Origin: an uncultured Candidatus Saccharibacteria bacterium
GTDB lineage: Bacteria > Patescibacteriota > Minisyncoccia > Phycocordibacterales > DATDWN01
Assembly: GCA_964552275.1 (NCBI GenBank)
Contig: CAZKFS010000002.1
Span: 1 to 34,428, forward strand
Direction of reading: 5' to 3'
DNA: 34,428 nucleotides
Shown: positions 654 to 26,972 of the stretch, one piece after another
How the letters are laid out: the number at the start of each line of letters is the position of its first letter
Position numbering within the stretch: position 1 is the stretch's first letter
Notes under the pieces: model-generated
What the model was told of the DNA's origin: nothing
Seen by the model: only the letters and a program-made list of their open reading frames with translations
The model's database searches: none
Translations under genes and position numbers: made by a program

Positions 654-679
654 TATAAAAAGTAGAGATTGGGGGGTGC

Positions 680-1177
680 ATGGAAGATTTCGAAGGGATG
701 TTCGGTGTCACCAAGAGAGGGGCTCTAGAGTTCTTTCGGGTTCATCTGGTTGATGTCGCATCGCGACCCTTGGATGAGGACCAGCTTTTGTATAATGCAA
801 GCATCCTTGCGCATTATGCACAAGTCTCGACACAGTCTACCGGCGGATTTCCAGCGCCAAAGTGTTTAGTTGGAGTGTTTGATCAGTTCGTTCTGGACAC
901 TTCAATGGGTGAAGATCCTGAAGTGATGGAAGTCGCTGGTGCCGAATGTCTTTTCTTGGTCGGGTTCTTTGAGGATCAGATGCGCAGGCGTCATTCAATT
1001 CCTTGGTATTCAGAACTGGGCGCAACTTTTTTCTTCAAGGCTTCATTAAACAAGAAGTCTAGGAAAAGAGCTCTTTTCTTCGAGGCTTTAGCAAGGGATT
1101 TTGAAGATTGGCGTCGACTCTACGCACGCTTGAGTCGGGAACTTCGGGACCAGAGGTATCTACTCAGACCACAATGA
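680..1177 (+). CDS. hypothetical protein, 165 aa (GC-rich island A)
   Basis: ATG 680 is preceded by a GGGGGGTG SD-like run a few nt upstream. TATAAT at 649-654 overlaps the capA-like stop codon. G+C is 32/60 at 721-780 against AT-rich flanks. A hairpin terminator follows. No family recognised. Confidence 0.6.
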   Translation: MEDFEGMFGVTKRGALEFFRVHLVDVASRPLDEDQLLYNASILAHYAQVSTQSTGGFPAPKCLVGVFDQFVLDTSMGEDPEVMEVAGAECLFLVGFFEDQMRRRHSIPWYSELGATFFFKASLNKKSRKRALFFEALARDFEDWRRLYARLSRELRDQRYLLRPQ

Positions 1178-1190
1178 ACTTCACACCAAC

Positions 1191-1228
1191 GGGGCCAGGC
1201 TTGAACAGTCTTGGCCCCTTCGTTTATA
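1191..1228 (+). terminator. hairpin terminator of island A
   Basis: Stem GGGGCCAGG (1191-1199) pairs with CTTGGCCCC (1210-1218), with one G-U pair and loop cTTGAACAgt. It is followed by TTCGTTTATATTT. Confidence 0.65.
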
Positions 1229-1257
1229 TTTAATGTTTTTGATGTATAATTCTTTTA

Positions 1258-1842
1258 ATGACAAAGCTTTTGGATTTTATTAAAAAATATTGGATTGTTA
1301 TATTGGCTACTGTTTTAATCTTGGTTGCAACTGCTCTTATTGAAATGAATTCTGGCAGATCTTTGTTTGGTCCATCTGGCAAGTTTGGTTTTTGGGAGGG
1401 AAGTGTTTGGAGTAGTGAAAACTCACAGCGAGTGGCAGATGCTTATACTTTTTCCCACATTATTCACGGGATGGTTTTCTACGGGTTCCTCTGGTTGGTG
1501 GCTAGGCGAGTTCCTGTAAAATATCGTTTTATATTTGCTCTGCTTATCGAAGCTGGTTGGGAACTACTTGAAAACTCACCGATTATTATAGATCGATACC
1601 GTGCAGTCACTATATCTCTAGGGTATGTTGGTGATAGTGTTTTGAATTCTGTATCAGATATTGTATTTGCTGGAATTGGTTTCTGGATATCGAGGTATTC
1701 AAAGTTTTGGGTTTCTGTTTTTCTCATTATTCTGATGGAGCTCGGATGTTTGTTCTGGGTTAGAGACAACCTGACTTTGAATGTAGTTATGCTCGCTTAT
1801 CCGCTCGATAGTATAAAAGTCTGGCAGTCTGTTGGACATTAG
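1258..1842 (+). CDS. DUF2585/UPF0314-family integral membrane protein
   Basis: Contains SSENSQ..D.YTFSHIIHG, LENSPIIIDRYR and VRDNLTLNV blocks that I recall as UPF0314 signatures. Multiple TM segments. TATAAT at 1245-1250 lies only 7 nt before the ATG and there is no SD. Confidence 0.7.
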   Translation: MTKLLDFIKKYWIVILATVLILVATALIEMNSGRSLFGPSGKFGFWEGSVWSSENSQRVADAYTFSHIIHGMVFYGFLWLVARRVPVKYRFIFALLIEAGWELLENSPIIIDRYRAVTISLGYVGDSVLNSVSDIVFAGIGFWISRYSKFWVSVFLIILMELGCLFWVRDNLTLNVVMLAYPLDSIKVWQSVGH

Positions 1843-1898
1843 TTTGGTTGTGATATAATTATCTAATAATTTATTCATTAAGTTTTAATTTTTAAAAT

Positions 1899-2219
1899 AT
1901 GTCAGAAAATAATCAAAACAATAGTTGTCAGGTTTGTGGTTCTGGAAATGGTCGCTGTGGTTCATGTGGAAATATGTGTGGTTTCGGTAAACACAATCTC
2001 CTAAGATGGATATTAGGCATTATCATTATCACTTGGATTTTTTCTATTGGTATGAAGTTCGGTGAAATAAAAGCTCAGCTACACGGTTCTTCTTATGGTT
2101 ATAAAAGTATGAGAGTTTCACCTATGATGGGTGGTGCCACTTGGGATCAAAACACAGTTTTTTTCTCAGAGGCAGTTCCAGCAACTCAAGCTGGTTCGGT
2201 TAGAGTTATAAAGAACTAA
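1899..2219 (+). CDS. hypothetical small membrane-anchored protein with Cys-rich N-terminus
   Basis: 106 aa. The N-terminus CQVCGSGNGRCGSCGNMCG is followed by one hydrophobic helix. Backbone codon usage. A terminator lies directly downstream. Confidence 0.55.
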   Translation: MSENNQNNSCQVCGSGNGRCGSCGNMCGFGKHNLLRWILGIIIITWIFSIGMKFGEIKAQLHGSSYGYKSMRVSPMMGGATWDQNTVFFSEAVPATQAGSVRVIKN

Positions 2220-2220
2220 C

Positions 2221-2258
2221 AAACTAAAACAGCTCCCGCAAGGGAGTTGTTTTAGTTT
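2221..2258 (+). terminator. long hairpin terminator with GCAA loop
   Basis: AAACTAAAACAGCTCCC - GCAA - GGGAG(T)TGTTTTAGTTT. It begins 2 nt after the stop of the 1899-2219 ORF, and its 3' arm is T-rich. Confidence 0.65.
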
Positions 2259-2259
2259 T

Positions 2260-2284
2260 ACTAACATTTTTCTAAAATGTTAGT
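2260..2284. promoter_or_regulatory. perfect 11-bp inverted repeat (ACTAACATTTT tct AAAATGTTAGT), candidate operator or hairpin immediately upstream of the SGNH hydrolase gene
   Basis: Read directly from the sequence. It ends 8 nt before ATG 2293. Confidence 0.4.
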
Positions 2285-2292
2285 ATTAAATC

Positions 2293-2919
2293 ATGACAAG
2301 GAATAACCTAATCACAGTTTTTGTTTTGATCGGTCTACTTATCTTTGGTTTTTGGTATTTTATTTTCAATAAAGAAGACAAAATTAAAAACTACCCATCT
2401 TCTGGGACAGATATTATTGCTTTTGGAGACAGTTTGATAGAAGGTGTTGGAGCAAGTTCTTCAGAAAATAACTTTGTTTCTATTTTGTCTAAAAAAATCG
2501 GTAGACCAATAGTTAACCTGGGCGTATCTGGAAACACAACCGAGGATGGATTGAACAGAATATCTGAGTTAGACAAATATGATCCAAAAGTAGTCCTGCT
2601 TCTTCTCGGAGGTAACGATCATTTGAAAAAAGTCCCAATAGAAACCACTTTCAGTAATTTGGAGAAAATTATACAAAACATACAGGCTAGAGGAGCTGTA
2701 GTTGTTGTGCTCGGTGTGCGGGGCAATCTGTTTGGGGACAAGTTTGCTCCAGAGTTTAAGGAAATAAAAAATAAATATCAGGCAGCCTACGTGCCAGATG
2801 TCTTGGATGGGTTGTTCGGTAATACAAAATACATGTCTGACGTCGTTCATCCGAACAATGCTGGGTATCAAATAATCGCTGACAGGGTTTACGAAGTTGT
2901 GAGGGGAGTTCTAAATTAG
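2293..2919 (+). CDS. SGNH/GDSL-family hydrolase (arylesterase/lipase-like) with N-terminal membrane anchor
   Basis: Block I is FGDSLIEG, block III is GGNDHL and block V is DVVHPNNAGY. The N-terminus is hydrophobic. Confidence 0.8.
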   Translation: MTRNNLITVFVLIGLLIFGFWYFIFNKEDKIKNYPSSGTDIIAFGDSLIEGVGASSSENNFVSILSKKIGRPIVNLGVSGNTTEDGLNRISELDKYDPKVVLLLLGGNDHLKKVPIETTFSNLEKIIQNIQARGAVVVVLGVRGNLFGDKFAPEFKEIKNKYQAAYVPDVLDGLFGNTKYMSDVVHPNNAGYQIIADRVYEVVRGVLN

Positions 2920-2938
2920 TTTATCCACAGTCTTTTTG

Positions 2939-2968
2939 TTGACTGGTGAACCCTAGTTCACCTATAAT
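2939..2968 (+). promoter_or_regulatory. sigma70-type promoter of the small-ORF/lexA operon (TTGACT - 18 nt - TATAAT)
   Basis: TTGACT at 2939-2944 and TATAAT at 2963-2968. The spacer is entirely occupied by the SOS-box palindrome. Confidence 0.65.
2945..2962. promoter_or_regulatory. LexA operator (Cheo-type SOS box, GAAC-N4-GTTC) within palindrome GGTGAAC CCTA GTTCACC
   Basis: GAAC at 2948-2951 and GTTC at 2956-2959. This matches the Gram-positive SOS-box core CGAACnnnnGTTCG. It sits between the -35 and -10 elements upstream of lexA. Confidence 0.7.
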
Positions 2969-3015
2969 GTAAGTATCAAAAGTACAACATTATAAGTTTA
3001 ATAATCACCAAAAAC

Positions 3016-3216
3016 ATGAGTAAACAAAATTTAGAAAGAGAGTTGAAGAGGGAACTAGAAGCTCTAAACGAGGTTATCGACAAAAGAATAATAAGAGGTC
3101 TCTCATATGCAAAGGAGGCCAGAAGACACAAGTTTGTTTTATCTAGTTTGTCGAACCTACGCAGAGCTAGATCAAACTGGATGACAAGATCGTTTTCATC
3201 ATTTTCTCTAATATAA
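3016..3216 (+). CDS. hypothetical small basic coiled-coil protein, 66 aa, first gene of the lexA operon
   Basis: ATG 3016 lies downstream of the SOS-box promoter, and the stop is 4 nt before the lexA ATG. Charged helical N-terminal half. No family recognised. Confidence 0.5.
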   Translation: MSKQNLERELKRELEALNEVIDKRIIRGLSYAKEARRHKFVLSSLSNLRRARSNWMTRSFSSFSLI

Positions 3217-3220
3217 AAAT

Positions 3221-3802
3221 ATGAGTGAACAAGTCTATACAAATCATAAAAATAAGATTTTAGATTTTTACAGAAAAAACAGACGTTTGCCTGGATATAA
3301 AGAAATGATGACTCTTTTGGGTTTCAAATCCAAAAATGCAGTTTATAAACTTATAAACAAATTGGTTGATGATGGAGTTGTCGACAAAGATTCTAGTGGG
3401 AAGCTCACCCCGATGAAGATTTTTGGCCAAGTTCCACTTCTTGGGCTAGTAGAAGCTGGCATCCCTACTTCTGTGGATGAAGATACTTCTGAATCTCTGA
3501 ACATAGATGAATATCTTGTTGGTGGGAGCAAAGCCTCGACTTATCTTCTAGAGGTCAAAGGTGATTCCATGATAGACGAAGGTATAAGGGAGGGTGATCT
3601 GGTTGTTGTGGAGAGAAGGGGTAATCCAAAAGACGGAGACATAGTTATAGCCGAAGTTGATGGTGGTTGGACTATGAAATATTTTAAAAAGAAGGGGAAC
3701 CTTATCTACTTGAAACCTGCCAATAAAAACTATTCGCCAATATACCCTCAGTATGATCTAAAGGTGGCTGCCATAGTAAAAGGCGTTATTCGTAAATACT
3801 AG
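3221..3802 (+). CDS. lexA: LexA repressor (S24 peptidase, SOS regulator)
   Basis: N-terminal winged-helix region. Ala-Gly cleavage site in VEAGIP. Catalytic Ser in KGDSM and Lys in WTMKYF. Confidence 0.9.
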   Translation: MSEQVYTNHKNKILDFYRKNRRLPGYKEMMTLLGFKSKNAVYKLINKLVDDGVVDKDSSGKLTPMKIFGQVPLLGLVEAGIPTSVDEDTSESLNIDEYLVGGSKASTYLLEVKGDSMIDEGIREGDLVVVERRGNPKDGDIVIAEVDGGWTMKYFKKKGNLIYLKPANKNYSPIYPQYDLKVAAIVKGVIRKY

Positions 3803-3816
3803 ATTTGTAAAATATT

Positions 3817-3825
3817 TGTTATAAT
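3817..3825 (+). promoter_or_regulatory. extended -10 element TGtTATAAT; the ATG at 3832 is 6 nt downstream (leaderless candidate)
   Basis: Read directly from the sequence. No SD lies between the element and the ATG. Confidence 0.45.
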
Positions 3826-3831
3826 TTGGTC

Positions 3832-4674
3832 ATGGGTAGATTTAAAGCCAGCAAGTTAATAGCGATAGAGTCTTGGGGGGTTTTGAGGCACGACAAAGAA
3901 ATGCTACTTTTTCCTTTGTTGTCGGTTGTTCTAAGTTTTGCACTAACAGCAGTATTTCTCCTTTTTATTTTCTTTTCAGTTCTAGGTGGTGACTGGATGC
4001 AAATAAAAAACATTGAAGCTAATGAGCTAGATCCTATGGCTTATGTGCTTTTCTTTGTGTTTTATGTATTAAATTTTTTTATTATCAACTTTTTCCAGTC
4101 AGCTGTATTTATTATGACCAACGCTAGGTTTAGCGGACAAGATCATACTTTCAGTCAAACTCTCAAAGAGACCATGACAAGAGTCGATAGGATTTTTATT
4201 TGGTCTTTGATATCAGCAACAGTTGGTATTATTTTAAAAATTATTTCTGATAAATTTAAACAAATAGGTATTATAGTTTCTATGATTTTTGGATCAGCTT
4301 GGTCCGTACTAACTTATTTTAGTTTACCTTCTTTGGTTATAGGACAAACAACTGTTACCGGGTCTTTCAAGGAGTCTGCTTCCTTAATAAGAAAAACTTG
4401 GGGGGAAACAATCATAATCAATTTCGGTGCAGGTTTGTTTTTTGGAGTTTTGAACATACTCACTATTTTTGTTTGTTTAGGATTGGCTCTCCTCATTCCC
4501 GAAGCAACTGTTTTCTTTGTCTTGGTACTCATTGTTCTTTTAGTTCTTATTACTACCATATCTTCAATACTTGGTTCTATATTTAAACTCGCTATTTATC
4601 AGTATGCCAAAACAGGAGTTATTCCTCAGAGTTTTTCTTCAGAACTTGTCTTAAATGCAATAAAAAGTAAATAA
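3832..4674 (+). CDS. polytopic membrane protein (DUF6159-like), about 280 aa
   Basis: Six or more hydrophobic helices. The start is ATG 3832 (a TTG at 3826 is also in frame). The stop overlaps the next ATG in TAATG. Confidence 0.6.
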   Translation: MGRFKASKLIAIESWGVLRHDKEMLLFPLLSVVLSFALTAVFLLFIFFSVLGGDWMQIKNIEANELDPMAYVLFFVFYVLNFFIINFFQSAVFIMTNARFSGQDHTFSQTLKETMTRVDRIFIWSLISATVGIILKIISDKFKQIGIIVSMIFGSAWSVLTYFSLPSLVIGQTTVTGSFKESASLIRKTWGETIIINFGAGLFFGVLNILTIFVCLGLALLIPEATVFFVLVLIVLLVLITTISSILGSIFKLAIYQYAKTGVIPQSFSSELVLNAIKSK

Positions 4675-4931
4675 TGAAATCTTTTACTGGCAGAGTTAAA
4701 GATGTGGTTAGGAGTATAAAGAAGGGTAAAACACTTACATATAAAGAAGTTGCAAAAAAAGCTGGCAACATAAATGCTAGTCGTGCAGTCGGTAGTATCA
4801 TGAAGAAGAATTTTGACCCAGAAATTCCTTGTCATAGGGTTATAAGGTCAGACGGTACCGTGGGGGAGTACAATCGTGGAGGCACAGAAAAGAAAAAGAG
4901 TATTTTAAAAAAGGAGGGTGTTATATTTTAA
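4674..4931 (+). CDS. MGMT-family DNA-binding domain protein (minimal O6-alkylguanine-DNA alkyltransferase domain, 85 aa)
   Basis: Active-site motif PCHRV with the cysteine retained. The helix-turn-helix stretch YKEVAKKAGN..ASRAVG is typical of Ogt/Ada C-terminal domains. Confidence 0.8.
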   Translation: MKSFTGRVKDVVRSIKKGKTLTYKEVAKKAGNINASRAVGSIMKKNFDPEIPCHRVIRSDGTVGEYNRGGTEKKKSILKKEGVIF

Positions 4932-4982
4932 TAAAAATTTAAAAATGTTATAATATTTTTATTAGAATTTAATATATATTTT

Positions 4983-5375: not shown

Positions 5376-5381
5376 ATTGTT

Positions 5382-5630
5382 GTGAGGATACTTGTTAAAG
5401 TTAAGGCTGGTGCAAAAGAAAACAAAGTGATCCCACCAGTCCCGAGGCTTTTGGATGTCGAAGATGAGAAAAGTTACTTTGCGGTTTTTGTAAAAGAGTT
5501 GCCAATAAACGGCAAGGCAAATGACTCTGTAATAAAAGCTCTGGCTGAATATTTTTCTGTAACCCTGTCTCAGGTTAAGTTATTGAGAGGATCCTCCTCC
5601 AAAATAAAAGTTTTTGAGATTTATAACTGA
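5382..5630 (+). CDS. DUF167 (YggU-like) family protein
   Basis: GTG start. The N-terminus ILVKVKAGAKENKV and the C-terminal KLLRGSSSKIKVFEI resemble the YggU family pattern. Confidence 0.65.
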   Translation: MRILVKVKAGAKENKVIPPVPRLLDVEDEKSYFAVFVKELPINGKANDSVIKALAEYFSVTLSQVKLLRGSSSKIKVFEIYN

Positions 5631-5646
5631 TTAATATAAGACAACG

Positions 5647-5664
5647 CCCCGGATCTCTCCGGGG
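5647..5664. terminator. GC hairpin CCCCGGA tctc TCCGGGG between convergent genes
   Basis: Read directly from the sequence. It lies 17 nt after the DUF167 stop and 32 nt after the stop of the minus-strand island B ORF. The U-tract is weak. Confidence 0.5.
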
Positions 5665-5695
5665 ACGTCAGGTTGTACTGGAAAAAACTTTAACC

Positions 5696-5878
5696 TTAGG
5701 TTGTTGAGGGCGTTTCCATCTCCTTCTTGATCTTTGTGAGGAGATTGTTCCTGGCCTCATCTGGAGTAGCCCCTGCTGCTGTCATTGCAGGAGATTCCCT
5801 CAAGGTTGCACGCCACCCATTTCTGGTGGGGACGTATCTGATCCGCTCTTCAGACATATTTAGTTTTTCCAACTCCAC
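5696..5878 (-). CDS. hypothetical small protein, up to 60 aa (GC-rich island B), weak HicB/UPF0150-like resemblance
   Basis: The pattern ..GW.A.L.E.P.....G.TP.EA..NL...I resembles HicB-type antitoxin N-domains. Start uncertain: GTG 5878 or ATG 5857. C/G-ending codons. Confidence 0.45.
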   Translation of the reverse strand: MELEKLNMSEERIRYVPTRNGWRATLRESPAMTAAGATPDEARNNLLTKIKKEMETPSTT

Positions 5879-5913
5879 ACCTCTTTCTTGGGCACGAGAA
5901 GTCCATTTGAAAT

Positions 5914-5940
5914 CTTATATTTATATATGGTAAAGGTCAA
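5914..5940 (-). promoter_or_regulatory. candidate promoter of island B (TTGACC ... TATAAG/TAAGAT on minus strand)
   Basis: The reverse complement of 5935-5940 is TTGACC and that of 5914-5919 is TATAAG. Spacer is 15-17 nt depending on the hexamer chosen. Confidence 0.4.
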
Positions 5941-6020
5941 TCTAAAATACAGGTTGGATTGTTAACATCTATGTCAAATCGACTGTGAGTAGTATGTGGA
6001 TAAGTTCATTGACATAGTTG

Positions 6021-6050
6021 TTGACAAAATATACCTACTTGACGTATACT
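6021..6050 (+). promoter_or_regulatory. candidate rpoB-leader promoter (TTGACA - 18 nt - TATACT)
   Basis: TTGACA at 6021-6026 and TATACT at 6045-6050. Two further TTGAC motifs at 6009 and 6039. Confidence 0.5.
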
Positions 6051-6182
6051 CTCTTTAGCTTCACGCGATTGAGTTTTGTCTGGTGGTGAAGGAGAATTAC
6101 AGGTTTTCTAGATAACCTGTATGGTTAATAAGTTCTCACACTATTTTGGTTTTAAATCAATAACAAACAAATAAACAAATTA

Positions 6183-6210
6183 TAGACCTTTGGGGAAAGG
6201 CCTATTTTTT
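6183..6210 (+). terminator. intrinsic terminator/attenuator inside the rpoB leader
   Basis: Stem TAGACCTTT / AAAGGCCTA with one mismatch and a GGGG loop, followed by TTTTTT at 6205-6210. It is flanked by complementary A-rich (6158-6182) and T-rich (6205-6232) tracts and lies 63 nt upstream of the rpoB ATG. Confidence 0.6.
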
Positions 6211-6272
6211 GTTTATTGTTTTGTTTGGTTTTATTTTATTAAAGGAGGGGGTTAATTAAAGTACAACATTTT

Positions 6273-16425: not shown

Positions 16426-16453
16426 TTGACAAAAATATTTTTAGTTATATAAT
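16426..16453 (+). promoter_or_regulatory. near-consensus sigma70 promoter of island C (TTGACA - 16 nt - TATAAT)
   Basis: TTGACA at 16426-16431 and TATAAT at 16448-16453, lying in AT-rich DNA immediately before the GC-rich ORF. Confidence 0.7.
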
Positions 16454-16506
16454 AGAGTGTAGAAATTTTACAGAGGCAGTTGGTGCTTCTGTGTTTGGAG
16501 GATACA

Positions 16507-17157
16507 GTGGTAAAGAGTGTGATGATGGTTTGTGTTGCCTTGATGATGGTTTCCGTGGCTTCGGCTCAGGACAGCTTCAAGGTGACGACTGTTTCCATCG
16601 GATCGGGGGAAACCCCGATTACTGGTGGAGTCTCGGCTTCCGTCGATCTATCGACGGAGACAGGCGGTTACATTCAGATCATGGCCCAGAGCCAGCAGGC
16701 CTGGTTCATGATGGGCAAGGACTGGAAGTTCGGCAGCGGACACAAGTGTTCGCTGTACGGATCAGTGGGTCACTTCCAATCGGCCCCATGGGTCGGACCG
16801 TATGCCGGTTGCAATCTGAACGTCGCCAAGGTGTTTGGTCAGGACGTCGTGATCGGCGCCCTCACCTGGCCAGGCTGGTACATCGGTCGAGAACCGATGG
16901 ACTGGCAGAACGACGGGGTGAAGAATACCGAGGCTACCTACGTTGGGTACTTCTCAATGGCCACAGCTTCGATCGGAGCACTTCAGCTAAGTTTGTCTCA
17001 TCTGAACTTTCTCGATGAGCCGACGAACTGGTTGCCCGGTGTCGGCTACAATCAGAAAGTCAGGTCAGATACGGAAGTCACGGGAAACGTGACTTGGAAT
17101 CCCAATGCCGATCGCGCCATGTATTACATCGGCGTCGTGTGGCATCCGAAGAAGTGA
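16507..17157 (+). CDS. hypothetical secreted protein, beta-rich, Gly/Trp/Tyr-rich (GC-rich island C)
   Basis: GGAGG at 16497-16501 lies 5 nt before the in-frame GTG 16507. The signal-peptide-like N-terminus is VKSVMMVCVALMMVSVASA/QD. Strong C/G third-position bias. Terminator downstream. No family recognised. Confidence 0.65.
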   Translation: MVKSVMMVCVALMMVSVASAQDSFKVTTVSIGSGETPITGGVSASVDLSTETGGYIQIMAQSQQAWFMMGKDWKFGSGHKCSLYGSVGHFQSAPWVGPYAGCNLNVAKVFGQDVVIGALTWPGWYIGREPMDWQNDGVKNTEATYVGYFSMATASIGALQLSLSHLNFLDEPTNWLPGVGYNQKVRSDTEVTGNVTWNPNADRAMYYIGVVWHPKK

Positions 17158-17164
17158 GTGCAGT

Positions 17165-17216
17165 CTCGTGTTGTGTGGAGCCAGAATATCGGCTCCATCA
17201 GCACGAGGCTTTTTTG
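17165..17216 (+). terminator. nested-hairpin intrinsic terminator, copy 1 of a duplicated module
   Basis: Inner stem GGAGCC agaatatc GGCTCC and outer stem CTCGTGTTG / CAGCACGAG, then TTTTTT. Positions 17175-17219 are identical to 17723-17767. Confidence 0.8.
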
Positions 17217-17244
17217 TTTAATAACTAATTATTATTTTGAAAAG

Positions 17245-17272
17245 TTTACAAAATTCAAATAAATGATATGGT
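17245..17272 (+). promoter_or_regulatory. promoter of island D (TTTACA - 16 nt - TGaTATGGT extended -10)
   Basis: TTTACA at 17245-17250, TG at 17264-17265 and TATGGT at 17267-17272. Confidence 0.55.
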
Positions 17273-17291
17273 TTAAAAAGAGGGGTGATGC

Positions 17292-17705
17292 ATGATTGAC
17301 CTGCTGACTTACTCAGCCATCTCTGGTGTCTTGTTCGGACTGTGGCCACTTTTCATGCAGAGAAGTGGTATCAAGAACGTCGACGTCTCAACTGTCGTCA
17401 TGGAGATGATTGTTCTCGCGGTCCTGCTTCCTTTTGGACTCAGAAACGTGAGTACGTTCGACTGGACCCAGATGAGTTGGGTCTACACCATACTAGCATC
17501 CGTTTCCGCAGCTTTCGGGGTTCTCATCTTCAATACTGGATTGTCCAAATCTAGTGATGTGACACTCAGCACGTACTTTGTGGTGATGATAGTCATACAG
17601 ACTAGCGTTCCTGCCGTTTATGAAGTTTTTAAGAATGGCATGAGCGTATCGAAATTCATAGGATTTATGTTGGCAGGTCTTGCAGCGTACTTCCTGTTGA
17701 AGTGA
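17292..17705 (+). CDS. small 4-TM membrane protein, single EamA/DMT-like domain (GC-rich island D)
   Basis: 137 aa with four hydrophobic helices. AGAGGGGTGA SD upstream of the ATG. C-ending codons. The EamA-like assignment is tentative. Confidence 0.6.
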   Translation: MIDLLTYSAISGVLFGLWPLFMQRSGIKNVDVSTVVMEMIVLAVLLPFGLRNVSTFDWTQMSWVYTILASVSAAFGVLIFNTGLSKSSDVTLSTYFVVMIVIQTSVPAVYEVFKNGMSVSKFIGFMLAGLAAYFLLK

Positions 17706-17712
17706 GCGAGTT

Positions 17713-17764
17713 CTCGTTGTTAGTGGAGCCAGAATATCGGCTCCATCAGCACGAGGCTTTTTTG
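17713..17764 (+). terminator. nested-hairpin intrinsic terminator, copy 2 of the duplicated module
   Basis: Same inner hairpin GGAGCC agaatatc GGCTCC, ATCAGCACGAGGC and T-run as copy 1, with 45 nt identical. Confidence 0.8.
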
Positions 17765-17811
17765 TTTGTTAAAAAATTTTTTTATGGTAGAGTGTTTCTG
17801 GGAGAAACTTG

Positions 17812-17892
17812 ATGATTAAGCTCATACTCGTTACGTTCGGGTTTGCCCTTGCGGCAACCCTGGTAGTCGTCTGCTTTTTGTTGAGGGTGTAA
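17812..17892 (+). CDS. 26-aa hydrophobic peptide MIKLILVTFGFALAATLVVVCFLLRV (GC-rich island E, first ORF)
   Basis: GGGAGA SD lies 7 nt upstream of ATG 17812. The peptide is a single TM helix. Its stop is 2 nt before the next start. It is below the 60-aa ORF-track cutoff, so I translated it by hand. Confidence 0.4.
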   Translation: MIKLILVTFGFALAATLVVVCFLLRV

Positions 17893-17894
17893 AA

Positions 17895-18122
17895 GTGAAA
17901 AAAGAAAATCTAGGAACGATTTGTCCCACTGTGGGGTGTCCAAAGGATGGCAGTACCACTTCCGTCTTTGGGACCTATCCATATTTCACGTGTACGGTGT
18001 GTCACACCCTCCTCGGTGAGTTTAAGGAGGGGGATCAGGAGAATCTGGTCGACTACTCACAGGTCAAGATGGAGAAGGATCTTAAGGCTCAGGAGGGCGA
18101 CAAGAACAACGGCTTTGTGTAG
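17895..18122 (+). CDS. hypothetical zinc-ribbon-like protein, 75 aa (GC-rich island E, second ORF)
   Basis: GTG start with a GAGGGTG SD 5 nt upstream. Cysteine pairs CPTVGC and CTVC. Acidic C-terminal tail. Confidence 0.5.
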   Translation: MKKENLGTICPTVGCPKDGSTTSVFGTYPYFTCTVCHTLLGEFKEGDQENLVDYSQVKMEKDLKAQEGDKNNGFV

Positions 18123-18161
18123 GTGGGGCGAAACTTCGCTCCACCTAGACAAGGTTTTTTT
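18121..18161 (+). terminator. hairpin plus T-run after island E
   Basis: Stem AGGTGGGGCG / CGCTCCACCT overlaps the stop codon. T7 run at 18155-18161, separated from the stem by 8 nt. Confidence 0.5.
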
Positions 18162-21115: not shown

Positions 21116-21123
21116 CATGACGA

Positions 21124-21148
21124 GGGGCGAGCTGTTCAAGCTCGCCCC
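21124..21148. terminator. GC hairpin GGGGCGAGC tgttcaa GCTCGCCCC between the helicase gene and convergent island F
   Basis: Read directly from the sequence. It lies 8 nt after the helicase stop and 11 nt after the island F stop. No clear U-tract on either strand. Confidence 0.5.
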
Positions 21149-21159
21149 GAATGTCGGAT

Positions 21160-21324
21160 CTACTTGCCGTACGGCCAGTAGGTGCGCAGATCTCCCACGT
21201 AGAAGAAGAGGTCACCTTGGTATGCGATGCCGATACCCACTAGTGCAATCAACGTGACCCAAGCCATGAGGACGATCAACCCCAAGCCTCCATAGTCCTG
21301 ATCACGGTTCTCTTGGTCAATCAT
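21160..21324 (-). CDS. hypothetical 54-aa single-TM protein MIDQENRDQDYGGLGLIVLMAWVTLIALVGIGIAYQGDLFFYVGDLRTYWPYGK (GC-rich island F)
   Basis: Hand-translated because it is below the ORF-track cutoff. AAAGGTGGTGA lies upstream, about 15 nt from the ATG. C/G-ending codons. Hairpin downstream. Confidence 0.45.
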   Translation of the reverse strand: MIDQENRDQDYGGLGLIVLMAWVTLIALVGIGIAYQGDLFFYVGDLRTYWPYGK

Positions 21325-21407
21325 TTGTTCGGCCAAGTGTCACCACCTTTCCTCGTGAGGTAAGACTTTCTAACTCTTATTCTATCAAGAGTTTTATAAA
21401 CTGTATA

Positions 21408-22106: not shown

Positions 22107-22131
22107 ATGTTTTAATTTAAAATAAAATTAT

Positions 22132-22989: not shown

Positions 22990-23069
22990 AAACGCGTTCC
23001 AAAAAAGCTTTATTTTAAGCCATATTTTTGGCTTCATGAAAACTATTTTAATTTAAACACGAAAAAACA

Positions 23070-23098
23070 TTGACGTAAAATCCATAGTGTGCTATGAT
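23070..23098 (+). promoter_or_regulatory. strong promoter of island G (TTGACG - 17 nt - TGcTATGAT extended -10)
   Basis: TTGACG at 23070-23075, TG at 23090-23091 and TATGAT at 23093-23098. Confidence 0.7.
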
Positions 23099-23167
23099 TA
23101 TAGTTGGTAAGAACGTCGTGAGATTTTCTTCTGTACACAGACAACAACAACCAACGAGGTACAACAC

Positions 23168-23392
23168 ATGGAAACCGCCACCGCCGAAGAGCAGAAGCTC
23201 GTCGATCAGGGCCAGCAGGCCACTATGGAAAACGTCCAGCACCCCATGTCCGCCGACGCCGGCCAGCATCCCCATTCCGCCATGTCCGATTCCGACGCCG
23301 ACACCCCGAACAACGACATCGGCGACCCCGCGGCCGCGGGCTCCGACATCGGCGATCCGCAGACCGAGCCCGAGCAGAAGCAGCACGCCTGA
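23168..23392 (+). CDS. hypothetical small acidic protein, 74 aa, with duplicated DIGDP motif (GC-rich island G)
   Basis: GAGGT SD lies 7 nt upstream of the ATG. About 90 percent C/G at third codon positions by eye, with a purine-rich first position. GACATCGGCGAYCC occurs twice. Confidence 0.6.
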   Translation: METATAEEQKLVDQGQQATMENVQHPMSADAGQHPHSAMSDSDADTPNNDIGDPAAAGSDIGDPQTEPEQKQHA

Positions 23393-23512
23393 TCGCGCGC
23401 CCCACGGCGGGGCGCCGACACACGGTCGCGGATTCCAGGGAGGGGGCGCGAATGGGTGAGAGAGCACCGCCGAGGAGTTGCCTGTAGGATCGTATAGGTC
23501 CGCAGGCAGGCT

Positions 23513-23550
23513 AGGGAAGGGGGAGAAATCCCCCGACCCTGGTCTTTTTT
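23513..23550 (+). terminator. intrinsic terminator of island G
   Basis: Inner stem GGGGGA gaaa TCCCCC and outer stem AGGG/CCCT, then TCTTTTTT at 23543-23550. Confidence 0.75.
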
Positions 23551-23589
23551 ATATAAAAATTATTTATTTGTAGAGTAAATTCCTAAACT

Positions 23590-23613
23590 CTTACTCAACT
23601 ATACTTTTTCTGG
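23590..23613 (+). repeat. 24-nt intergenic repeat CTTACTCAACTATACTTTTTCTGG, copy 1
   Basis: 23 of 24 nt identical to 33090-33113. Confidence 0.8.
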
Positions 23614-23688
23614 TACCAGAATAATTTCTTGCTAGAAATTTTCTTTCTGCTCACTCTTTCACAGGTTCCGCAGACACCAGAAAAAGTA
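23602..23688. repeat. 13-bp perfect inverted repeat (TACTTTTTCTGGT / ACCAGAAAAAGTA) enclosing a 61-nt spacer with inner hairpin AATTTCT tgct AGAAATT
   Basis: Read directly from the sequence. It lies downstream of the minus-strand exonuclease gene and may serve as its terminator. Confidence 0.6.
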
Positions 23689-23719
23689 CAGTTTCGACGA
23701 GTTTCTTAATTTACGATTT

Positions 23720-24301
23720 CTAAAACAGACTTTGAGTTTTGATTTCGGGCACAGGTTCCCAATGTTTAGTATCTAGTTTAACCTCTTTTGTAAAGGGTCC
23801 TTCTCTAAAGATTATTTTTTTATTTTTCATAGCAAAATCGTAGACATCTCTGGTTATCTTTACATCATCTATACAATACTTCCTTATTTCATCCACTTTT
23901 CCTTCTCTCCACCATTTAACAGCTTCTAAACCGTTACCAACTTTGTTTACACCAAAAGTTCCTTCGGCTATTTTATCCAGCTTGAGCCATCTACCAGACG
24001 AGTTTTTTATTTCCTTAAAAATATCTAGAGAACGGATTGTTTTTATGTCACCTAGACCTGCTTTTTTGTAGTATTTGTTCAGTAGCGGTATATCAAAATG
24101 TTCTCCGTTGAAAGTAATCAGAACATCAGCTTTTTGAAAGTAGGGCCACATTTTTGGAAACTCTTCCTGTCCAAAAGTTTCAAATTTATTTGTTTCGTAG
24201 TCGTATACACCCACTATAGATATATCCAAATCCGCAGGATCTTTCGAACCCACGTCTGAGAATATGTTTTTTGTTTCTATATCAAAAACTATTTTTCGCA
24301 T
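23720..24301 (-). CDS. DEDD-type 3'-5' exonuclease (RNase H-like fold, PolB-exonuclease/YprB-like)
   Basis: Exo I is FDIET, Exo II is FNGEHFDIPLL and Exo III is YCIDDV. Confidence 0.7.
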   Translation of the reverse strand: MRKIVFDIETKNIFSDVGSKDPADLDISIVGVYDYETNKFETFGQEEFPKMWPYFQKADVLITFNGEHFDIPLLNKYYKKAGLGDIKTIRSLDIFKEIKNSSGRWLKLDKIAEGTFGVNKVGNGLEAVKWWREGKVDEIRKYCIDDVKITRDVYDFAMKNKKIIFREGPFTKEVKLDTKHWEPVPEIKTQSLF

Positions 24302-25242
24302 GTCGGTAATCCGTGTGTCTCAAGAAAATCTCTCATAGTCACATCTCCCATACCAAAACCGACTGTTGGAACAGGGTCTACACCAAAAAGTTCGAGCAAA
24401 TTGTCGTATCTTCCACCACCAAAAAGAGACCGGTTGTTTTCTGGAGAAGTATCAAAAACTTCAAAGACCATACCTGTGTAGTAGTCAAAGCCACGCACTA
24501 TGCTTGGGTCAAATACTATATTATTTATTCCTTTGTTTTTGTATTCATCGAGAGAAACCACGTCTTTTATTTCCATGTCAGGATTAACACCAAATTTTCT
24601 TAATTCAGCATCGTACTCTTCTTTTGGTATTTTATCTTTTTTATCAAGCAGTCTGAAAATCGATGGGATATCTTCATTTTTTGCACCGTTTGCTATCAAA
24701 ACTTCCTCAAGTTTTTTTCTGTCATTTATTTTAATAACAAAATCCTCATCTTTTGCGCCAAAAGATTTCATTATGCTGTGAGCGAGTGTGATTATCTCAA
24801 CTTCTGCCTCGACACCAGCTATACCCATAACGTCGCAGTTCAACTGCCAGTGTTCTCTCTTCCTACCTCTCTGTGGTTTTTCGTATCTAAATACGTTTGG
24901 TATAGAGAACCATCGTAGGGGGAATTTCAAAGACCGTCTTCTGCCAGCAACCATACGAGCAAGTGTCGGCGTCATCTCTGGTCGGAGCACGACTTCACGT
25001 CCACCACGATCTGTAAAAGAAAATGTTTGGTCATTTACTATTTCTGAACTAGTTTTACTTCTGTATAGTTCTGCAGGTTCTAGGAGGGAAGCAGAGTATT
25101 CTACGTAACCAAATTCTTTTGCTACTTTTTTCCAAGTGTCAAAAATATAGTTTTGGACCGCCATATCTTCTGGGTAAAAGTCCCTGACACCTTTATAGGG
25201 TTCTGTTTCTAGTTTTGATTGCGGTTTTGTTTCTTCTGTCAT
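24289..25242 (-). CDS. histidyl-tRNA synthetase-like class II catalytic core lacking an anticodon-binding domain (HisRS/HisZ-like)
   Basis: Contains GVRDFYPED, RPEMTPTLARM, motif 2 FRYEKPQRGRKREHWQ and motif 3 GGGRYDNL. The protein ends right after GFGMGD. ATG 25242 is preferred over 25287. About 317 aa. Confidence 0.75.
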   Translation of the reverse strand: MTEETKPQSKLETEPYKGVRDFYPEDMAVQNYIFDTWKKVAKEFGYVEYSASLLEPAELYRSKTSSEIVNDQTFSFTDRGGREVVLRPEMTPTLARMVAGRRRSLKFPLRWFSIPNVFRYEKPQRGRKREHWQLNCDVMGIAGVEAEVEIITLAHSIMKSFGAKDEDFVIKINDRKKLEEVLIANGAKNEDIPSIFRLLDKKDKIPKEEYDAELRKFGVNPDMEIKDVVSLDEYKNKGINNIVFDPSIVRGFDYYTGMVFEVFDTSPENNRSLFGGGRYDNLLELFGVDPVPTVGFGMGDVTMRDFLETHGLPTCEK

Positions 25243-25263
25243 ATTGATATAGTGTATCAGAAT
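25243..25263. promoter_or_regulatory. 21-nt divergent intergenic region with back-to-back extended -10 elements (TGaTATAGT on plus, TGaTACACT on minus)
   Basis: The palindromic core TGATATAGTGTATCA was read directly. The starts of truB (25264) and the HisRS-like gene (25242) lie 8-10 nt from the respective -10 elements, with no SD. Confidence 0.45.
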
Positions 25264-26025
25264 ATGGAAAACAGAAAAGGTGTACATGTTTTATATAAAA
25301 ACCTTGGAGAAACGCCAAACGAGGCTATTTTGCGTTTCAAGAAAGATAATCCCGAATACGAAAAAGAGTCCATGACATACGCTGGACGTCTCGATCCTAT
25401 GGCCGAAGGATTGCTCCTCATACTGTCCGGAGATGAGTTACAAAACAAAGAAAAATATCTAAACCTGACAAAGACCTATGAATTTGAAATCTTGTGGGGT
25501 TTTGAAACGGATACGTTGGATGTTTTAGGTTTGGTGTCTCCAGGAATTTCTTTCTCATCACAAGTTTTTCGGGACAACATGATCTCGACTAATTTTCAGG
25601 AATTAATTGGTAAGTTTGAACAGTCTTATCCAGCTTACTCATCCAAACCAGTTAAAGGCAAACCACTTTTTCAATGGGCCAGAGAGGGGAGGTTGGGAGA
25701 TATAGAAATACCGAAACATGAAGTCGAGATGTTTGATGTACAGTATTTATCTAGAAGAACCATGTCCAAAGAAGATTTGCTCAAAGAAATAATTTACAAA
25801 GTAAACTCTGTTTCTGGAGATTTTCGACAGAAAGAAATATTGGAAAAATGGCAACAGGTTTTAGAAAAAACTAATCAAAACGAGTTTGTTTTGGATAAAA
25901 TAACTGCTACTGTTTCAAGCGGTTTCTATATTCGACAGTTTGTTTCTGACTTAGCAAAAAGTTTGGGAATAAATGGGTTAACTTTTCATATAAAAAGAAC
26001 AAGAGTGGGAGACTATGTTCTATAG
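25264..26025 (+). CDS. truB: tRNA pseudouridine(55) synthase
   Basis: Catalytic-Asp motif YAGRLDPMAEGLL. The family N-terminus fits ATG 25264 rather than 25219. Confidence 0.85.
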   Translation: MENRKGVHVLYKNLGETPNEAILRFKKDNPEYEKESMTYAGRLDPMAEGLLLILSGDELQNKEKYLNLTKTYEFEILWGFETDTLDVLGLVSPGISFSSQVFRDNMISTNFQELIGKFEQSYPAYSSKPVKGKPLFQWAREGRLGDIEIPKHEVEMFDVQYLSRRTMSKEDLLKEIIYKVNSVSGDFRQKEILEKWQQVLEKTNQNEFVLDKITATVSSGFYIRQFVSDLAKSLGINGLTFHIKRTRVGDYVL

Positions 26026-26101
26026 TTTGCTATTTTAGTAAATTGTTGGTTATATATTACAAGGATTTACCCTCGATGGGTCGAGGGAAAAGGAGTTCGG
26101 T

Positions 26102-26422
26102 TTGGATAGAGCGAAGGCAATCAGGGAACTGGCGGATATGGTGAGGTCCAGGATGGAGGAACTCAATGCGAAAGCAGAGTTGGCTCCTATCACGGATCGA
26201 GTTGGCAAGAGACCTTTCAATCTGATTCTGGCTGGCGATCCAGGTCGGTTGAAACAAAAGCAGGTCGTATTGGTCTTGTCAGCTATCGGTTTTGACCGAG
26301 ACGAGATGAACGACTGCATGATTTTGTTCCTCTTGGCCAGACAGCCCGTTGAGCGTAATGCGCAACCGAGAAAGCGTTGGAGAGGTTTCGGTCGCCGACG
26401 CCAGCCCTACCTCACGCGGTAG
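26102..26422 (+). CDS. hypothetical protein, 106 aa (GC-rich island H, first unit)
   Basis: TTG start with GGAG (26092-26095) 6 nt upstream. A 5' UTR hairpin CCCTCGA tggg TCGAGGG at 26070-26087. It has its own terminator. Confidence 0.5.
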   Translation: MDRAKAIRELADMVRSRMEELNAKAELAPITDRVGKRPFNLILAGDPGRLKQKQVVLVLSAIGFDRDEMNDCMILFLLARQPVERNAQPRKRWRGFGRRRQPYLTR

Positions 26423-26440
26423 TTGCCGGTTCAGTTCTTC

Positions 26441-26480
26441 GAAGTCCGGGTGCCCTCAGCACCTGGACTTCTTCGTTTTC
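26441..26480 (+). terminator. hairpin terminator after island H first unit
   Basis: Stem GAAGTCCGGGTGC / GCACCTGGACTTC with one G-U pair and loop cctca, followed by TTCGTTTTC. Confidence 0.6.
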
Positions 26481-26536
26481 GCACGGTATTTACAGTTAAC
26501 CGATAGTGTGATTGTATATTAAAGGAATCGCCCCGA

Positions 26537-26884
26537 ATGGCGAACTTCAAGGAGTGGCGAATGCGTGATCCGCGTGCGGCAGCTAGGGTAGCTCTGGGGA
26601 TCGAACTCAGGAGGATTCGTAGGAAGGTTAGGAGGTTGAATGTCGCCGATCTGGCGGCTTTTGACCCAGAACTCAATCCTCAGGCTTTCACTTCGGCGGA
26701 GGGGGGGTGTGTCGAGGACTGTGACCTGATGAGACGGATCATCAGCGTCTATGCCTCTGGACCGGCAGAGGTGATGTCATTGAGGCCCTATCTCGAGCGA
26801 GCCTTTCCCTCTCTCGAAATCGCAACCCCCACTTGGGCCTTGATGATGGATCCAACGGTGACTGTTGGAGCAAGGCTGATGTAG
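26537..26884 (+). CDS. hypothetical protein, 115 aa, possible helix-turn-helix N-terminus (GC-rich island H, second unit)
   Basis: AAAGGA SD lies 9 nt upstream of the ATG. The segment ALGIELRRIRRKVR.LNVADLA resembles the XRE-type HTH pattern. It has its own terminator. Confidence 0.5.
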   Translation: MANFKEWRMRDPRAAARVALGIELRRIRRKVRRLNVADLAAFDPELNPQAFTSAEGGCVEDCDLMRRIISVYASGPAEVMSLRPYLERAFPSLEIATPTWALMMDPTVTVGARLM

Positions 26885-26932
26885 CCGACCTCTTTCCACA
26901 GGTCAGGCCGTAGCGCAATACGGAAAAGTTCA

Positions 26933-26972
26933 GGGTTCCCGTCAGCACGTTGTGCTCGGGAACCCATTTTTT
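26933..26972 (+). terminator. intrinsic terminator of island H, abutting the typA stop codon
   Basis: Stem GGGTTCCCG / CGGGAACCC with inner stem AGCAC gtt GTGCT, then TTTTTT at 26967-26972. Confidence 0.75.

Follow-up and report, generated by a model that had tools for sequence, protein, structure and literature searches.

The 34.4-kb window analyzed here (the whole stretch of 34,428 nt from contig CAZKFS010000002.1; overall GC content 0.383) carries an AT-rich housekeeping backbone interrupted at six intergenic sites by nine small GC-rich units, which total 4,181 bp, or 12% of the window. The backbone comprises genes for PGA_cap, DUF2585 and GDSL lipase proteins, a lexA-like gene, rpoB, rpoC, dnaG, rpoD, a UvrD/PD-(D/E)XK helicase gene, a dsbA-like gene, uppP, an RNase H-like exonuclease gene, a hisS-like gene, truB, typA, and further small genes. 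An earlier note, made from the sequence alone, had described GC-rich mini-cassettes at six intergenic sites of such a backbone, and we found them where it had placed them. The units are as follows.

Unit A, 629-1229, plus strand: promoter-like TTGCAA-16-TAATAT (629-656), Shine-Dalgarno (SD) sequence GGGGGG, open reading frame (ORF) 680-1177, hairpin terminator 1191-1229
Unit B, 5640-5935, minus strand: GC-rich segment with a 60-aa ORF (5696-5878) of doubtful coding status and a hairpin (5641-5665)
Unit C, 16426-17222, plus strand: promoter TTGACA-16-TATAAT (16426-16453), 5′ untranslated region (5′UTR) of ~47 nt, SD GGAGG, ORF 16507-17157
Terminator of unit C, 17166-17215, plus strand: nested hairpin
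Unit D, 17245-17770, plus strand: promoter-like TTTACA-16-TATGGT, SD GAGGGGTG, ORF 17292-17705, terminator copying that of C
Unit E, 17771-18160, plus strand: coupled ORFs E1 (17812-17892) and E2 (17895-18122), terminator 18124-18160 directly upstream of the helicase promoter
Unit F, 21118-21407, minus strand: promoter-like TATACA-17-TAGAAT (extended -10), SD AGGTGGTG, ORF 21160-21336, hairpin 21125-21148
Unit G, 23070-23552, plus strand: promoter TTGACG-17-TATGAT with TG extension, 63-nt 5′UTR, SD ACGAGGT, ORF 23168-23392
Unit H1, 26027-26480, plus strand: promoter-like TTGCTA-17-TATATA, 5′UTR hairpin, SD AAGGAG, ORF 26102-26422 (106 aa), terminator 26441-26480
Unit H2, 26489-26972, plus strand: promoter-like TTTACA-N-TGTATAT, SD AAGGAG, ORF 26561-26884 (107 aa), terminator 26925-26968 facing the end of typA

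The units stand apart from the backbone in base composition. Backbone windows of 200 nt have a mean GC content of 0.367 (standard deviation 0.043, maximum 0.495, n = 290), whereas those lying wholly within the islands average 0.515 and reach 0.70; taken unit by unit, GC content is 0.46-0.67 against 0.37 for the backbone. GC content at third codon positions (GC3) is 0.46-0.87 in the island ORFs and 0.26-0.38 in 30 backbone ORFs, so that sliding-window GC and GC3, which the earlier note had proposed as a check, both mark the islands as distinct; its hand counts of G+C in four 60-nt segments (32/60, 35/60, 43/60, and 16/60) were all exact on recount. The preference for C- and G-ending codons that it had described in the island ORFs extends across every codon class (AAG 0.80 in islands versus 0.24 in the backbone, CAG 0.81 versus 0.37, ATC 0.59 versus 0.19), and the shift takes in G-ending Lys, Gln, and Glu codons as well as first and second codon positions. 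Amino acid usage in the islands is likewise altered, with Ala, Arg, and Pro up and Lys, Ile, and Asn down. Along the units, GC content is 0.13-0.35 in the 60 nt upstream, 0.33-0.62 in the 5′UTR, 0.46-0.67 in the coding sequence, 0.49-0.67 in the 3′UTR, and 0.13-0.42 in the 60 nt downstream, a profile that bears out a compositional jump near the start codon and an end at the terminator, with the promoters in AT-rich DNA. The GC-rich domain thus coincides with the predicted transcript, including the 157-nt non-coding 3′UTR of G.

Sigma-70-like hexamers, identified as consensus predictions, precede every unit in AT-rich DNA; the promoter of C matches 12/12 consensus positions, and that of G matches 10/12 and carries the TG extension. 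A GC hairpin followed by a T-run is predicted downstream of A, C, D, E, G, H1, and H2, and the hairpins of B and F have weaker T-runs. Position and conservation in relatives support the putative promoters and terminators, and each unit is a predicted stand-alone transcript.

Translation signals also divide the two gene classes. The predicted duplex with the anti-SD sequence reaches ≤ -7 kcal/mol at 9/10 island starts, compared with 10% of island-internal 18-mers (binomial p ~1e-8), and at 0/29 backbone starts (median +0.2), in agreement with the note's claim of SD motifs at most islands and none at rpoC, lexA, the helicase, truB, and other genes. The backbone genes of relatives likewise lack SD sequences, and we conclude that the island units use a translation-initiation mode unlike that of the core genes. 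In several backbone genes, the ATG is preceded by a TATAAT-like box at a distance of 6-8 nt (for example, at starts 1258, 3832, 18194, and 31539 on the minus strand), which suggests widespread leaderless mRNAs in the window organism. Two island starts needed revision: H2 had been begun at 26537, which is probably too early, since homologues start at ATG 26561 and AAGGAG lies 6 nt upstream of it, making this the most likely start; for F, whose proposed ORF was 21160-21324, the start is most likely TTG 21336. The two classes also separate by annotation, with a Pfam family assigned to 0/10 island ORFs and 26/30 backbone ORFs.

To place these features in a comparative setting, we used 90 related loci (L numbers below), obtained from a genome-collection scan, a metagenome scan with helicase alignment, and exact-protein look-ups. 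The nearest public relatives of the window are Parcubacteria/Paceibacterota metagenome-assembled genomes (Parcubacteria bacterium C7867-006, Gr01-1014_46-like, and SO_2016_LW3_81). About 14 loci are close relatives, with rpoD 86-96% identical to that of the window and from differing samples and assemblers, and eight are distant relatives (rpoD 72-80%). Comparison of sites takes in those of C/D/E, F, G, and H; no relative's locus spans the A or B site. The core-gene order of the window is kept in the ~14 close relatives, where GC-rich units (GC 0.57-0.74) occur at the gaps rpoD-helicase, (uppP or dsbA)-exonuclease, and truB-typA.

This comparison bears directly on whether the islands could be assembly chimeras, in which high-GC reads of another organism were fused into an AT-rich contig. 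The AT/GC junctions are sharp and the sequence is of metagenome type, as a chimera would have it. However, the layout of core gene, GC island, and core gene recurs in independent assemblies drawn from ENA, NCBI, JGI, and Logan (including L001, L004, L008, L009, L015, L016, L021, L031, L040, and L058), the island genes of different assemblies are orthologous to one another, and promoter and terminator sequences run continuously across the junctions and are conserved. Because GC-rich units lie at the same gaps in independently assembled relatives, chimeric assembly is excluded, and this explanation is refuted for practical purposes; the junctions, on whose support the earlier note had made its proposal depend, recur from assembly to assembly.

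The rpoD-helicase gap is a hot spot of variable content, with at least eight families in differing combinations and orders among the relatives. Its contents are listed here.

Window: C, D, E1/E2
L001 and L016: C with other content
L008: C; the contig ends just beyond C
L021: D, then a 201-aa membrane protein (memb201)
L031: memb201, a zinc-ribbon gene, and D (order reversed relative to L021)
L058: two paralogous signal-peptide β-rich proteins and a 150-aa ORF
L038 and L081: 240-aa coiled-coil family
L004 and L040: histidine-phosphatase-like gene on the opposite strand and a zinc ribbon
L056: 484 nt with no GC-rich ORF
L005: 98 nt, empty
Eight distant relatives: 27-57 nt only

Since the gap is empty in L005 and in the eight distant relatives, its occupancy is derived. 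Orthologues of D in L021, L031, and L040 are 43-47% identical, have a GC3 of 0.55-0.63, and lie in the same hot spot in another order, and zinc-ribbon genes occupy the position equivalent to E in L004, L040, and L001. Units may stand on the opposite strand, as B and F do in the window and as others do in L001, L004, and L040. Two families are not confined to this gap. Four loci carry a member of the C family after rpoD and another four carry one before mraZ, and in the seven loci other than the window each C homologue has a TATTGACA-type promoter, a 45-60-nt leader, an SD sequence, and a terminator; a β-rich family of L011 and L012 lies beside C before mraZ, yet within the rpoD-helicase gap in L058. 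F occurs in the window alone, where the helicase-dsbA gap is 292 nt, as against 0-64 nt in 8/11 close relatives; the others have 165 nt (L081), 201 nt (L017), and 209 nt (L016), and in none of the 11 does this gap hold a GC-rich ORF, usually just a bidirectional terminator. Presence and absence therefore differ at the rpoD-helicase and F sites, a synteny comparison that the note had recommended, and its suggestion of a cassette-like accessory gene pool is well supported by gaps that hold recurring GC-rich families in varied combination and order, with some of them empty.

The G and H sites behave differently from those of F and C/D/E, where the units are extra relative to syntenic relatives; both are occupied in every covering close relative. 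The G locus is orthologous across the clade, with its AT-rich promoter conserved in the window, L021, L031, L040, L016, and L004; L021 and L040 share with the window its SD sequence ACGAGGTAC and its stop-codon context GCCTGATCGCGCG, the latter of which recurs in L031 too. The body of the G ORF is unalignable between relatives, yet its GC content remains 0.62-0.74 and its GC3 0.77-0.89. At the truB-typA gap, every close relative covering it has one or two small GC-rich ORFs, next to a typA that is ~90% identical; these include an H1 homologue in L021 (GC3 0.70) and an H2 homologue in L015 (P0073, 35% identity), whose GC3 of 0.62 compares with 0.25-0.28 in neighboring genes. H2 also has a weak match to L001 18863-19240. 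The earlier note had allowed that its proposal would fall if the same ORFs proved universally conserved with no compositional anomaly, and the anomaly is present in the relatives too.

We asked next how far the island ORFs are coding. By ORF length, A, C, and D stand out (p ≤ 0.003), H1 and H2 are borderline, and B, E, F, and G do not reach significance. Significant codon-position periodicity is seen in C, G, F, D, A, E2, H1, and E1 (p values of 1e-7 for G, 2e-4 for F, 0.005 for E2, and 0.025 for E1) but not in H2 or B, so that most island ORFs pass formal coding tests, on which the earlier note had also staked its proposal, and B fails. For B (GC 0.50), periodicity is absent (p 0.66), ORF-length p is 0.2, the fold z-score is only -1.7, and neither a sequence search with a concatenated query nor a PDB search returned a homologue or match; a candidate identity as a HicB-like antitoxin was unsupported by PDB sequence search.

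Structured non-coding RNA genes, GC-rich for the sake of folding and with accidental ORFs, are a very improbable account of the islands. Genes for rRNA and tRNA are GC-rich in AT-rich genomes, the ORFs of B, E, F, and G are not significantly long, B shows no coding signal, and the 3′UTR of G (157 nt, 23393-23552) has a GC content of 0.67 with no periodicity, folds into four hairpins (z -4.8), and ends in the terminator. Against this, no island matches an Rfam family (at the gathering threshold or at E up to 5), a tRNA, or a tmRNA (ARAGORN); C, G, F, D, A, and E2 are strongly periodic by codon position; C is conserved at the protein level with a confident fold; A, D, H1, and H2 have protein homologues; and the SD sites are correctly spaced from the starts. 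The 3′ region of G itself could represent either a structured RNA or another very short ORF; in L021 and L016, the G locus likewise has a long, GC-rich 3′ region, with an internal AGGAGG...ATG.

The island proteins have no above-threshold match in Pfam, PHROGs, NCBIfam, or PADLOC. C (GC3 0.69) has a Sec signal peptide followed by a predicted 12-strand transmembrane β-barrel of ~200 residues. Its AlphaFold2 (AF2) model (predicted local distance difference test score, pLDDT, 86) has 12 strands and matches the KdgM and NanC porins best among PDB folds (Foldseek E 1.5e-5), with template-modeling (TM) scores of 0.60-0.75 to 4fqe/4pr7 and 0.58-0.60 to 2wjq/2wjr. C is thus confidently predicted to be a porin-like β-barrel. 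It is like KdgM and NanC, which are 12-strand monomeric outer-membrane porins, in predicted fold, size, and signal peptide; it differs from them in sequence, with no Pfam, NCBIfam, or PDB sequence match and 10-12% identity to KdgM/NanC, and in its host, a member of the candidate phyla radiation (CPR). CPR bacteria are generally regarded as having no outer membrane. GC-rich cassettes at L058 7514-8107 and 8308-8859, L011 10794-11372, and L030 13363-14067 encode β-rich proteins of ~180-230 aa with a signal peptide, a C-terminal aromatic residue (...KFTF, ...RRNF, ...SRRF), and no Pfam match; to judge from their sequences, they look like outer-membrane β-barrels, as C does.

Of the remaining proteins, A (165 aa; GC 0.48, GC3 0.46; ORF-length p 0.001; SD duplex -10.2 kcal/mol) is predicted to be all-helical; a PDB profile search gave no match, and its AF2 model has low confidence (pLDDT 63), too weak for a fold search. 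D (137 aa; SD duplex -11.4 kcal/mol) has four predicted transmembrane (4-TM) segments and a weak Pfam EamA match (E 0.005, under the cut-off). E1 is a 26-aa hydrophobic peptide with a single TM segment, and E2 a 75-aa CxxC...CxxC zinc ribbon. F, between the convergent ends of the helicase and dsbA genes, encodes 58 aa with one TM helix (GC3 0.69), and G encodes an acidic, low-complexity protein of 74 aa (GC3 0.87). H1 (GC3 0.61) and H2 resemble small helix-turn-helix (HTH) proteins by eye only.

Searches for homologues separated A from the rest. A has 23 homologues (50-58% identical, ~167 aa) from high-GC genomes, with a GC content of 0.65 at the two loci checked; those that carry a name are Acidobacteria/Acidobacteriota, and they often adjoin groES/groEL. 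Judged from these matches, A is a capture from a high-GC phylum and the only clear import among the units, and, as the least GC-rich of them, it is consistent with partial amelioration. The A-family gene lies beside groES/groEL at L013 6001-6708 and L014 6001-6798 (proteins P0033-P0042), and in several gene calls of high-GC genomes it is fused or merged with Cpn10 or with the C terminus of Cpn60, which hints at a chaperonin-linked function of this uncharacterized family. By contrast with A, the 19 homologues of C (39-64% identical) come from Parcubacteria contigs in every retrieved genomic context, homologues of C, D, and H2 were found only in Parcubacteria contigs (searches of 5.8 and 1.8 billion proteins), and those of H1 lie within the clade only. 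Sequence search detected no homologue of E2, F, G, or B; the concatenated query recovered only the A family in one run and, in the other, nothing for D, E2, H1, F, or B. A phage source, raised in the earlier note, gained no support: viral-contig scans held no relatives of A or C, and no island protein matched PHROGs.

Repeated acquisition from a high-GC partner, another of the sources considered at the outset, therefore fits A (Acidobacteriota, 65% GC) and fails for C, D, G, H1, and H2. Extended to all units as recent transfers from a high-GC partner or host that have yet to be pulled to the AT-rich composition of the recipient, it is quite unlikely. All three codon positions, amino acid usage, and UTRs are shifted as would be expected of a genome with 55-65% GC, the use of SD sequences is alien to the backbone, the fold of C is of an outer-membrane type typical of diderm bacteria, and A is both the least GC-rich unit and 50-58% identical to proteins of 65% GC Acidobacteriota. 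Yet the homologues of C, D, and H2 are restricted to Parcubacteria contigs, orthologues of G, H1, and H2 run through the clade with conserved AT-rich promoters in front of them, and AT-rich promoter regions are unexpected in DNA from a 65% GC donor. C, in addition, keeps a GC3 of 0.65-0.81 in seven hosts across 39-64% identity, with synonymous sites saturated.

This last point can be made quantitative. At fourfold-degenerate sites of identical amino acids, the window and its relatives share the same third base at 0.38-0.56 of sites in housekeeping genes and 0.20-0.44 in C, and both gene classes are close to saturation. Even so, fourfold GC3 of C is 0.44-0.82 in seven hosts (0.63-0.82 in six), against 0.04-0.32 for housekeeping genes, and high GC content likewise marks the orthologues of D, H1, H2, and G, whose identity is 35-47% or lower. 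C does not show the drift to host composition over time that is characteristic of alien DNA. Since these families are GC-rich despite saturated synonymous sites, we infer that in C, D, G, H1, and H2 a high GC content is being maintained across the whole transcript and is not left over from a recent transfer.

Two sequence clues bear on how the units might move. D is bracketed by 95-nt direct repeats (17151-17245 and 17699-17793) that are 81% identical, contain a 45-nt identical core, and run from the stop codon through the terminator; the earlier note had seen no flanking direct repeats, which is wrong for D. This repeated terminator belongs to a shared 3′ module (TCTCGTR, a variable GC hairpin, CACGRG, T6), for which we found nine regex matches, against 0-3 in shuffles of 1.28 Mb. 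Eight of the nine lie in the rpoD-helicase hot spot, after C, D, zinc-ribbon, and other cassettes, and the module is absent from the other five sites. Its inner stem shows compensatory changes, and its outer arms are conserved in sequence, which is not needed for a terminator alone. The sites are listed here.

Window: 17166-17215 and 17714-17763
L016: 6144-6192 and 6754-6795
L021: 4296-4340
L031: 5777-5816 and 6283-6325
L081: 9067-9108

Furthermore, a conserved ~90-nt terminator-promoter-SD element, which on L040 reads as the upstream region of the zinc-ribbon ORF, recurs in L031, L040, L008, L016, L038, and L058 behind different cassettes. The heptamer TCAGCAC stands in the loop or descending arm of the terminators of C, D, H1, and H2 (17198, 17746, 26456, 26942); as a shared motif it is marginal, with seven copies in the window against ~3 expected and seven reached in 4/100 shuffles. 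The note's idea of a mobile promoter-ORF-terminator unit has suggestive but partial backing: C occurs as a whole unit in two contexts, D and its neighbor are swapped, D is repeat-flanked, and the terminator is shared. No mobility enzyme was found. We suggest that units enter and move by recombination with no dedicated enzyme. One likely route would be DNA uptake followed by homologous exchange via the conserved flanking core genes; another would be homologous or illegitimate recombination at shared terminator/promoter modules, of which the repeat around D may be a footprint.

An integron-like or otherwise recombinase-driven array, in which the nested 3′ hairpins serve as recombination sites for a recombinase encoded elsewhere, would also account for a structure-conserved hairpin with a covarying inner stem after different cassettes of one hot spot, for the direct repeat of the hairpin module around D, and for the variable cassette order. 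It is nonetheless highly improbable: an intrinsic terminator accounts in full for the hairpin and its T-run, the R-box consensus of attC is missing, promoters accompany every cassette, cassettes face either way (L004, L040, L001), the module is absent from the other five sites, and neither the Pfam scans of the window nor the precomputed gene calls of L001, the loci covered, contain an integrase.

Taken together, these observations lead us to read the units as moron-like accessory cassettes in chromosomal hot spots of a Parcubacteria (CPR) lineage, moving by recombinase-free means and with a maintained GC content, a reading to which we assign a probability of about 55%. The nine units would be autonomous accessory transcription units, each with a sigma-70-type promoter, an SD-bearing 5′UTR, one or two small ORFs, and an intrinsic terminator. 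They would form part of a flexible pool shared by the clade, made up of small genes that evolve fast and are mostly regulator-like or associated with the envelope, among them the porin-like β-barrel, small membrane proteins, zinc ribbons, and HTH-like pairs, with a few gaps acting as hot spots of gain, loss, replacement, and re-ordering. Selection acting on the transcript or the DNA, or else a substitution bias specific to the cassettes, would keep their GC content high.

Several results weigh against this reading. Pfam scans of all window ORFs found no integrase, transposase, or recombinase, and there is no tRNA target or target-site duplication, which bears out the earlier note on integrases, transposases, and tRNA targets; because no mobility enzyme was found, mobility is inferred from comparative patterns only. 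A consensus scan for promoters and terminators over 13 kb gave no enrichment over shuffled sequence, and for this reason both remain predictions. B is poorly supported as a gene, being the only island ORF with no coding support at all, since H2, though non-periodic, has protein homologues. Outside the clade, the concatenated query, of limited sensitivity for short proteins, found no homologue of D, E2, H1, F, or B. As for the high GC content, ordinary translational selection was rejected because the ribosomal-protein and EF-Ts genes of related contigs are not GC3-rich and because the shift extends to UTRs and to G-ending Lys, Gln, and Glu codons; regional GC-biased gene conversion was rejected because any GC3 gradient in the core genes beside the islands is matched in genomes whose gaps are empty. 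Neither process explains the composition. Substitutions in C, polarized with L008/L016 and outgroups, show a mild and noisy excess of GC-to-AT changes (21 versus 12), compatible with near-equilibrium and also with slow decay. Finally, G and the H pair may be vertically inherited, fast-evolving native genes rather than inserted units.

Carried to all units, the last point becomes an explanation in its own right: native, vertically inherited, lineage-specific genes, subject to losses but not mobility, whose GC content and SD sequences set apart a class under its own expression control, such as mRNAs under selection for stability, for structure, or, in a genome that is mostly leaderless, for SD-dependent translation. 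A stationary composition, the orthology of the G and H loci, a compositional domain that matches the transcript with no DNA insertion boundary, the strict partition of SD and SD-less genes, and the lack of any mobility genes found all suit it. We nevertheless consider it unlikely, given an rpoD-helicase gap that is empty in L005 and eight distant relatives, a cassette order that is swapped between L021 and L031, two unrelated chromosomal settings for C and likewise for the β-rich L011/L058 family, an F present in one genome only, a clearly foreign A, and a repeat-flanked D.

Reading the units as moron-like cassettes invites comparison with known systems. Certain junctions between core genes in flexible genomes are hot spots that concentrate accessory-gene gain, loss, and replacement between syntenic flanks. 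The rpoD-helicase gap is like these and like genomic islets in its variable content, and exchange via homologous flanks is plausible here too; it differs in that the units are single-gene, 0.25-0.8 kb in size rather than multi-gene islands, have no integrases or tRNA targets, and exceed the core in GC content, contrary to accessory genomes in general, which are usually AT-rich. Of the marks of classical genomic islands, the units show no tRNA and no integrase, and the sole repeat is the 95-nt terminator repeat around D. Integron cassettes are similar in forming arrays of small single-gene cassettes with variable order and a 3′ imperfect hairpin in one hot spot, but here there is no integrase (window and L001), attI, or attC consensus, the cassettes have their own promoters and both orientations, unlike the promoterless, uniformly oriented cassettes that Pc drives in an integron beside its tyrosine-recombinase integrase gene (intI), and the hairpin is an ordinary terminator. 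We class the units neither as integron cassettes nor as classical genomic islands.

Morons were reportedly first described by Juhala, Hendrix, and colleagues in 2000. In HK97/HK022-type phages, these extra genes come with a promoter and terminator of their own, a GC content unlike that of their neighbors, and the status of additions to syntenic relatives (Cumby et al. 2012, PMC3594210). The units are alike in consisting of a single small gene with its own promoter and terminator, in their GC contrast with neighboring genes, and in being inserted in a conserved syntenic backbone with no attached mobility gene or known mechanism of insertion. They depart from morons in three respects: the backbone is made of cellular housekeeping genes (rpoB, rpoC, dnaG, rpoD, helicase, typA) and not of a prophage; C, G, and H are old residents with a maintained odd composition rather than transient; and the units differ from the backbone in translation-initiation mode as well.

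Two further features lie outside the units. An AT-rich, Y-shaped structured element of ~100 nt stands at 23596-23700 of the window (minimum free energy -30.5 kcal/mol, z -6.3), with a partial copy at 33085-33116. It recurs at L038 692-776, L021 3700-3796, L004 15663-15727 (minus strand), and L058 15674-15737 and 20026-20084, at intergenic sites that differ from relative to relative, the rpoD-helicase hot spot being among them at its left edge; its matches to Rfam "mir-3914" are weak and fall on both strands, and it could be a small repeat resembling a miniature inverted-repeat transposable element or a small RNA. The AT-rich leader of rpoB (5934-6272, 340 nt) contains several TTGACA-like boxes and a 30-nt inverted repeat (6162-6225, 83% complementary) and may regulate the rpoBC operon, as a leader or an attenuator.

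In the literature searched, we found no description of GC-rich cassettes, SD partition, or porin-like proteins in CPR bacteria. The strict coupling of GC richness to SD initiation in an otherwise SD-less genome, and the long-term upkeep of this composition, appear undescribed. More speculatively, and with decidedly less confidence than we place in the cassettes themselves, the chromosome may hold two genetic "dialects": an AT-rich, SD-less, apparently leaderless core and recombinase-free, GC-rich, SD-led cassettes, kept along the entire transcript at a separate, actively held equilibrium through divergence that saturates synonymous sites, and serving envelope or host-interface functions. If this is true, base composition by gene class would be a selected trait, coupled to initiation mode or tuned to a high-GC host.

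Deviant base composition is routinely read as a sign of recent transfer, and resident families that keep ~20-40 GC3 points above their neighbors despite saturating divergence, with sharp limits where the transcripts end, challenge the amelioration clock. Composition-based gene callers, binning, and chimera filters will tend to mishandle such genes. The strict SD coupling offers a natural system for the coexistence of two initiation modes in an uncultivated, reduced bacterium, and the hot-spot cassettes give a sequence-defined handle on how CPR flexible genomes diversify with no visible mobile-element machinery. Together, the confidently predicted porin-type β-barrel family and the Acidobacteriota-derived gene provide testable leads on the cell envelope and host identity of this lineage.

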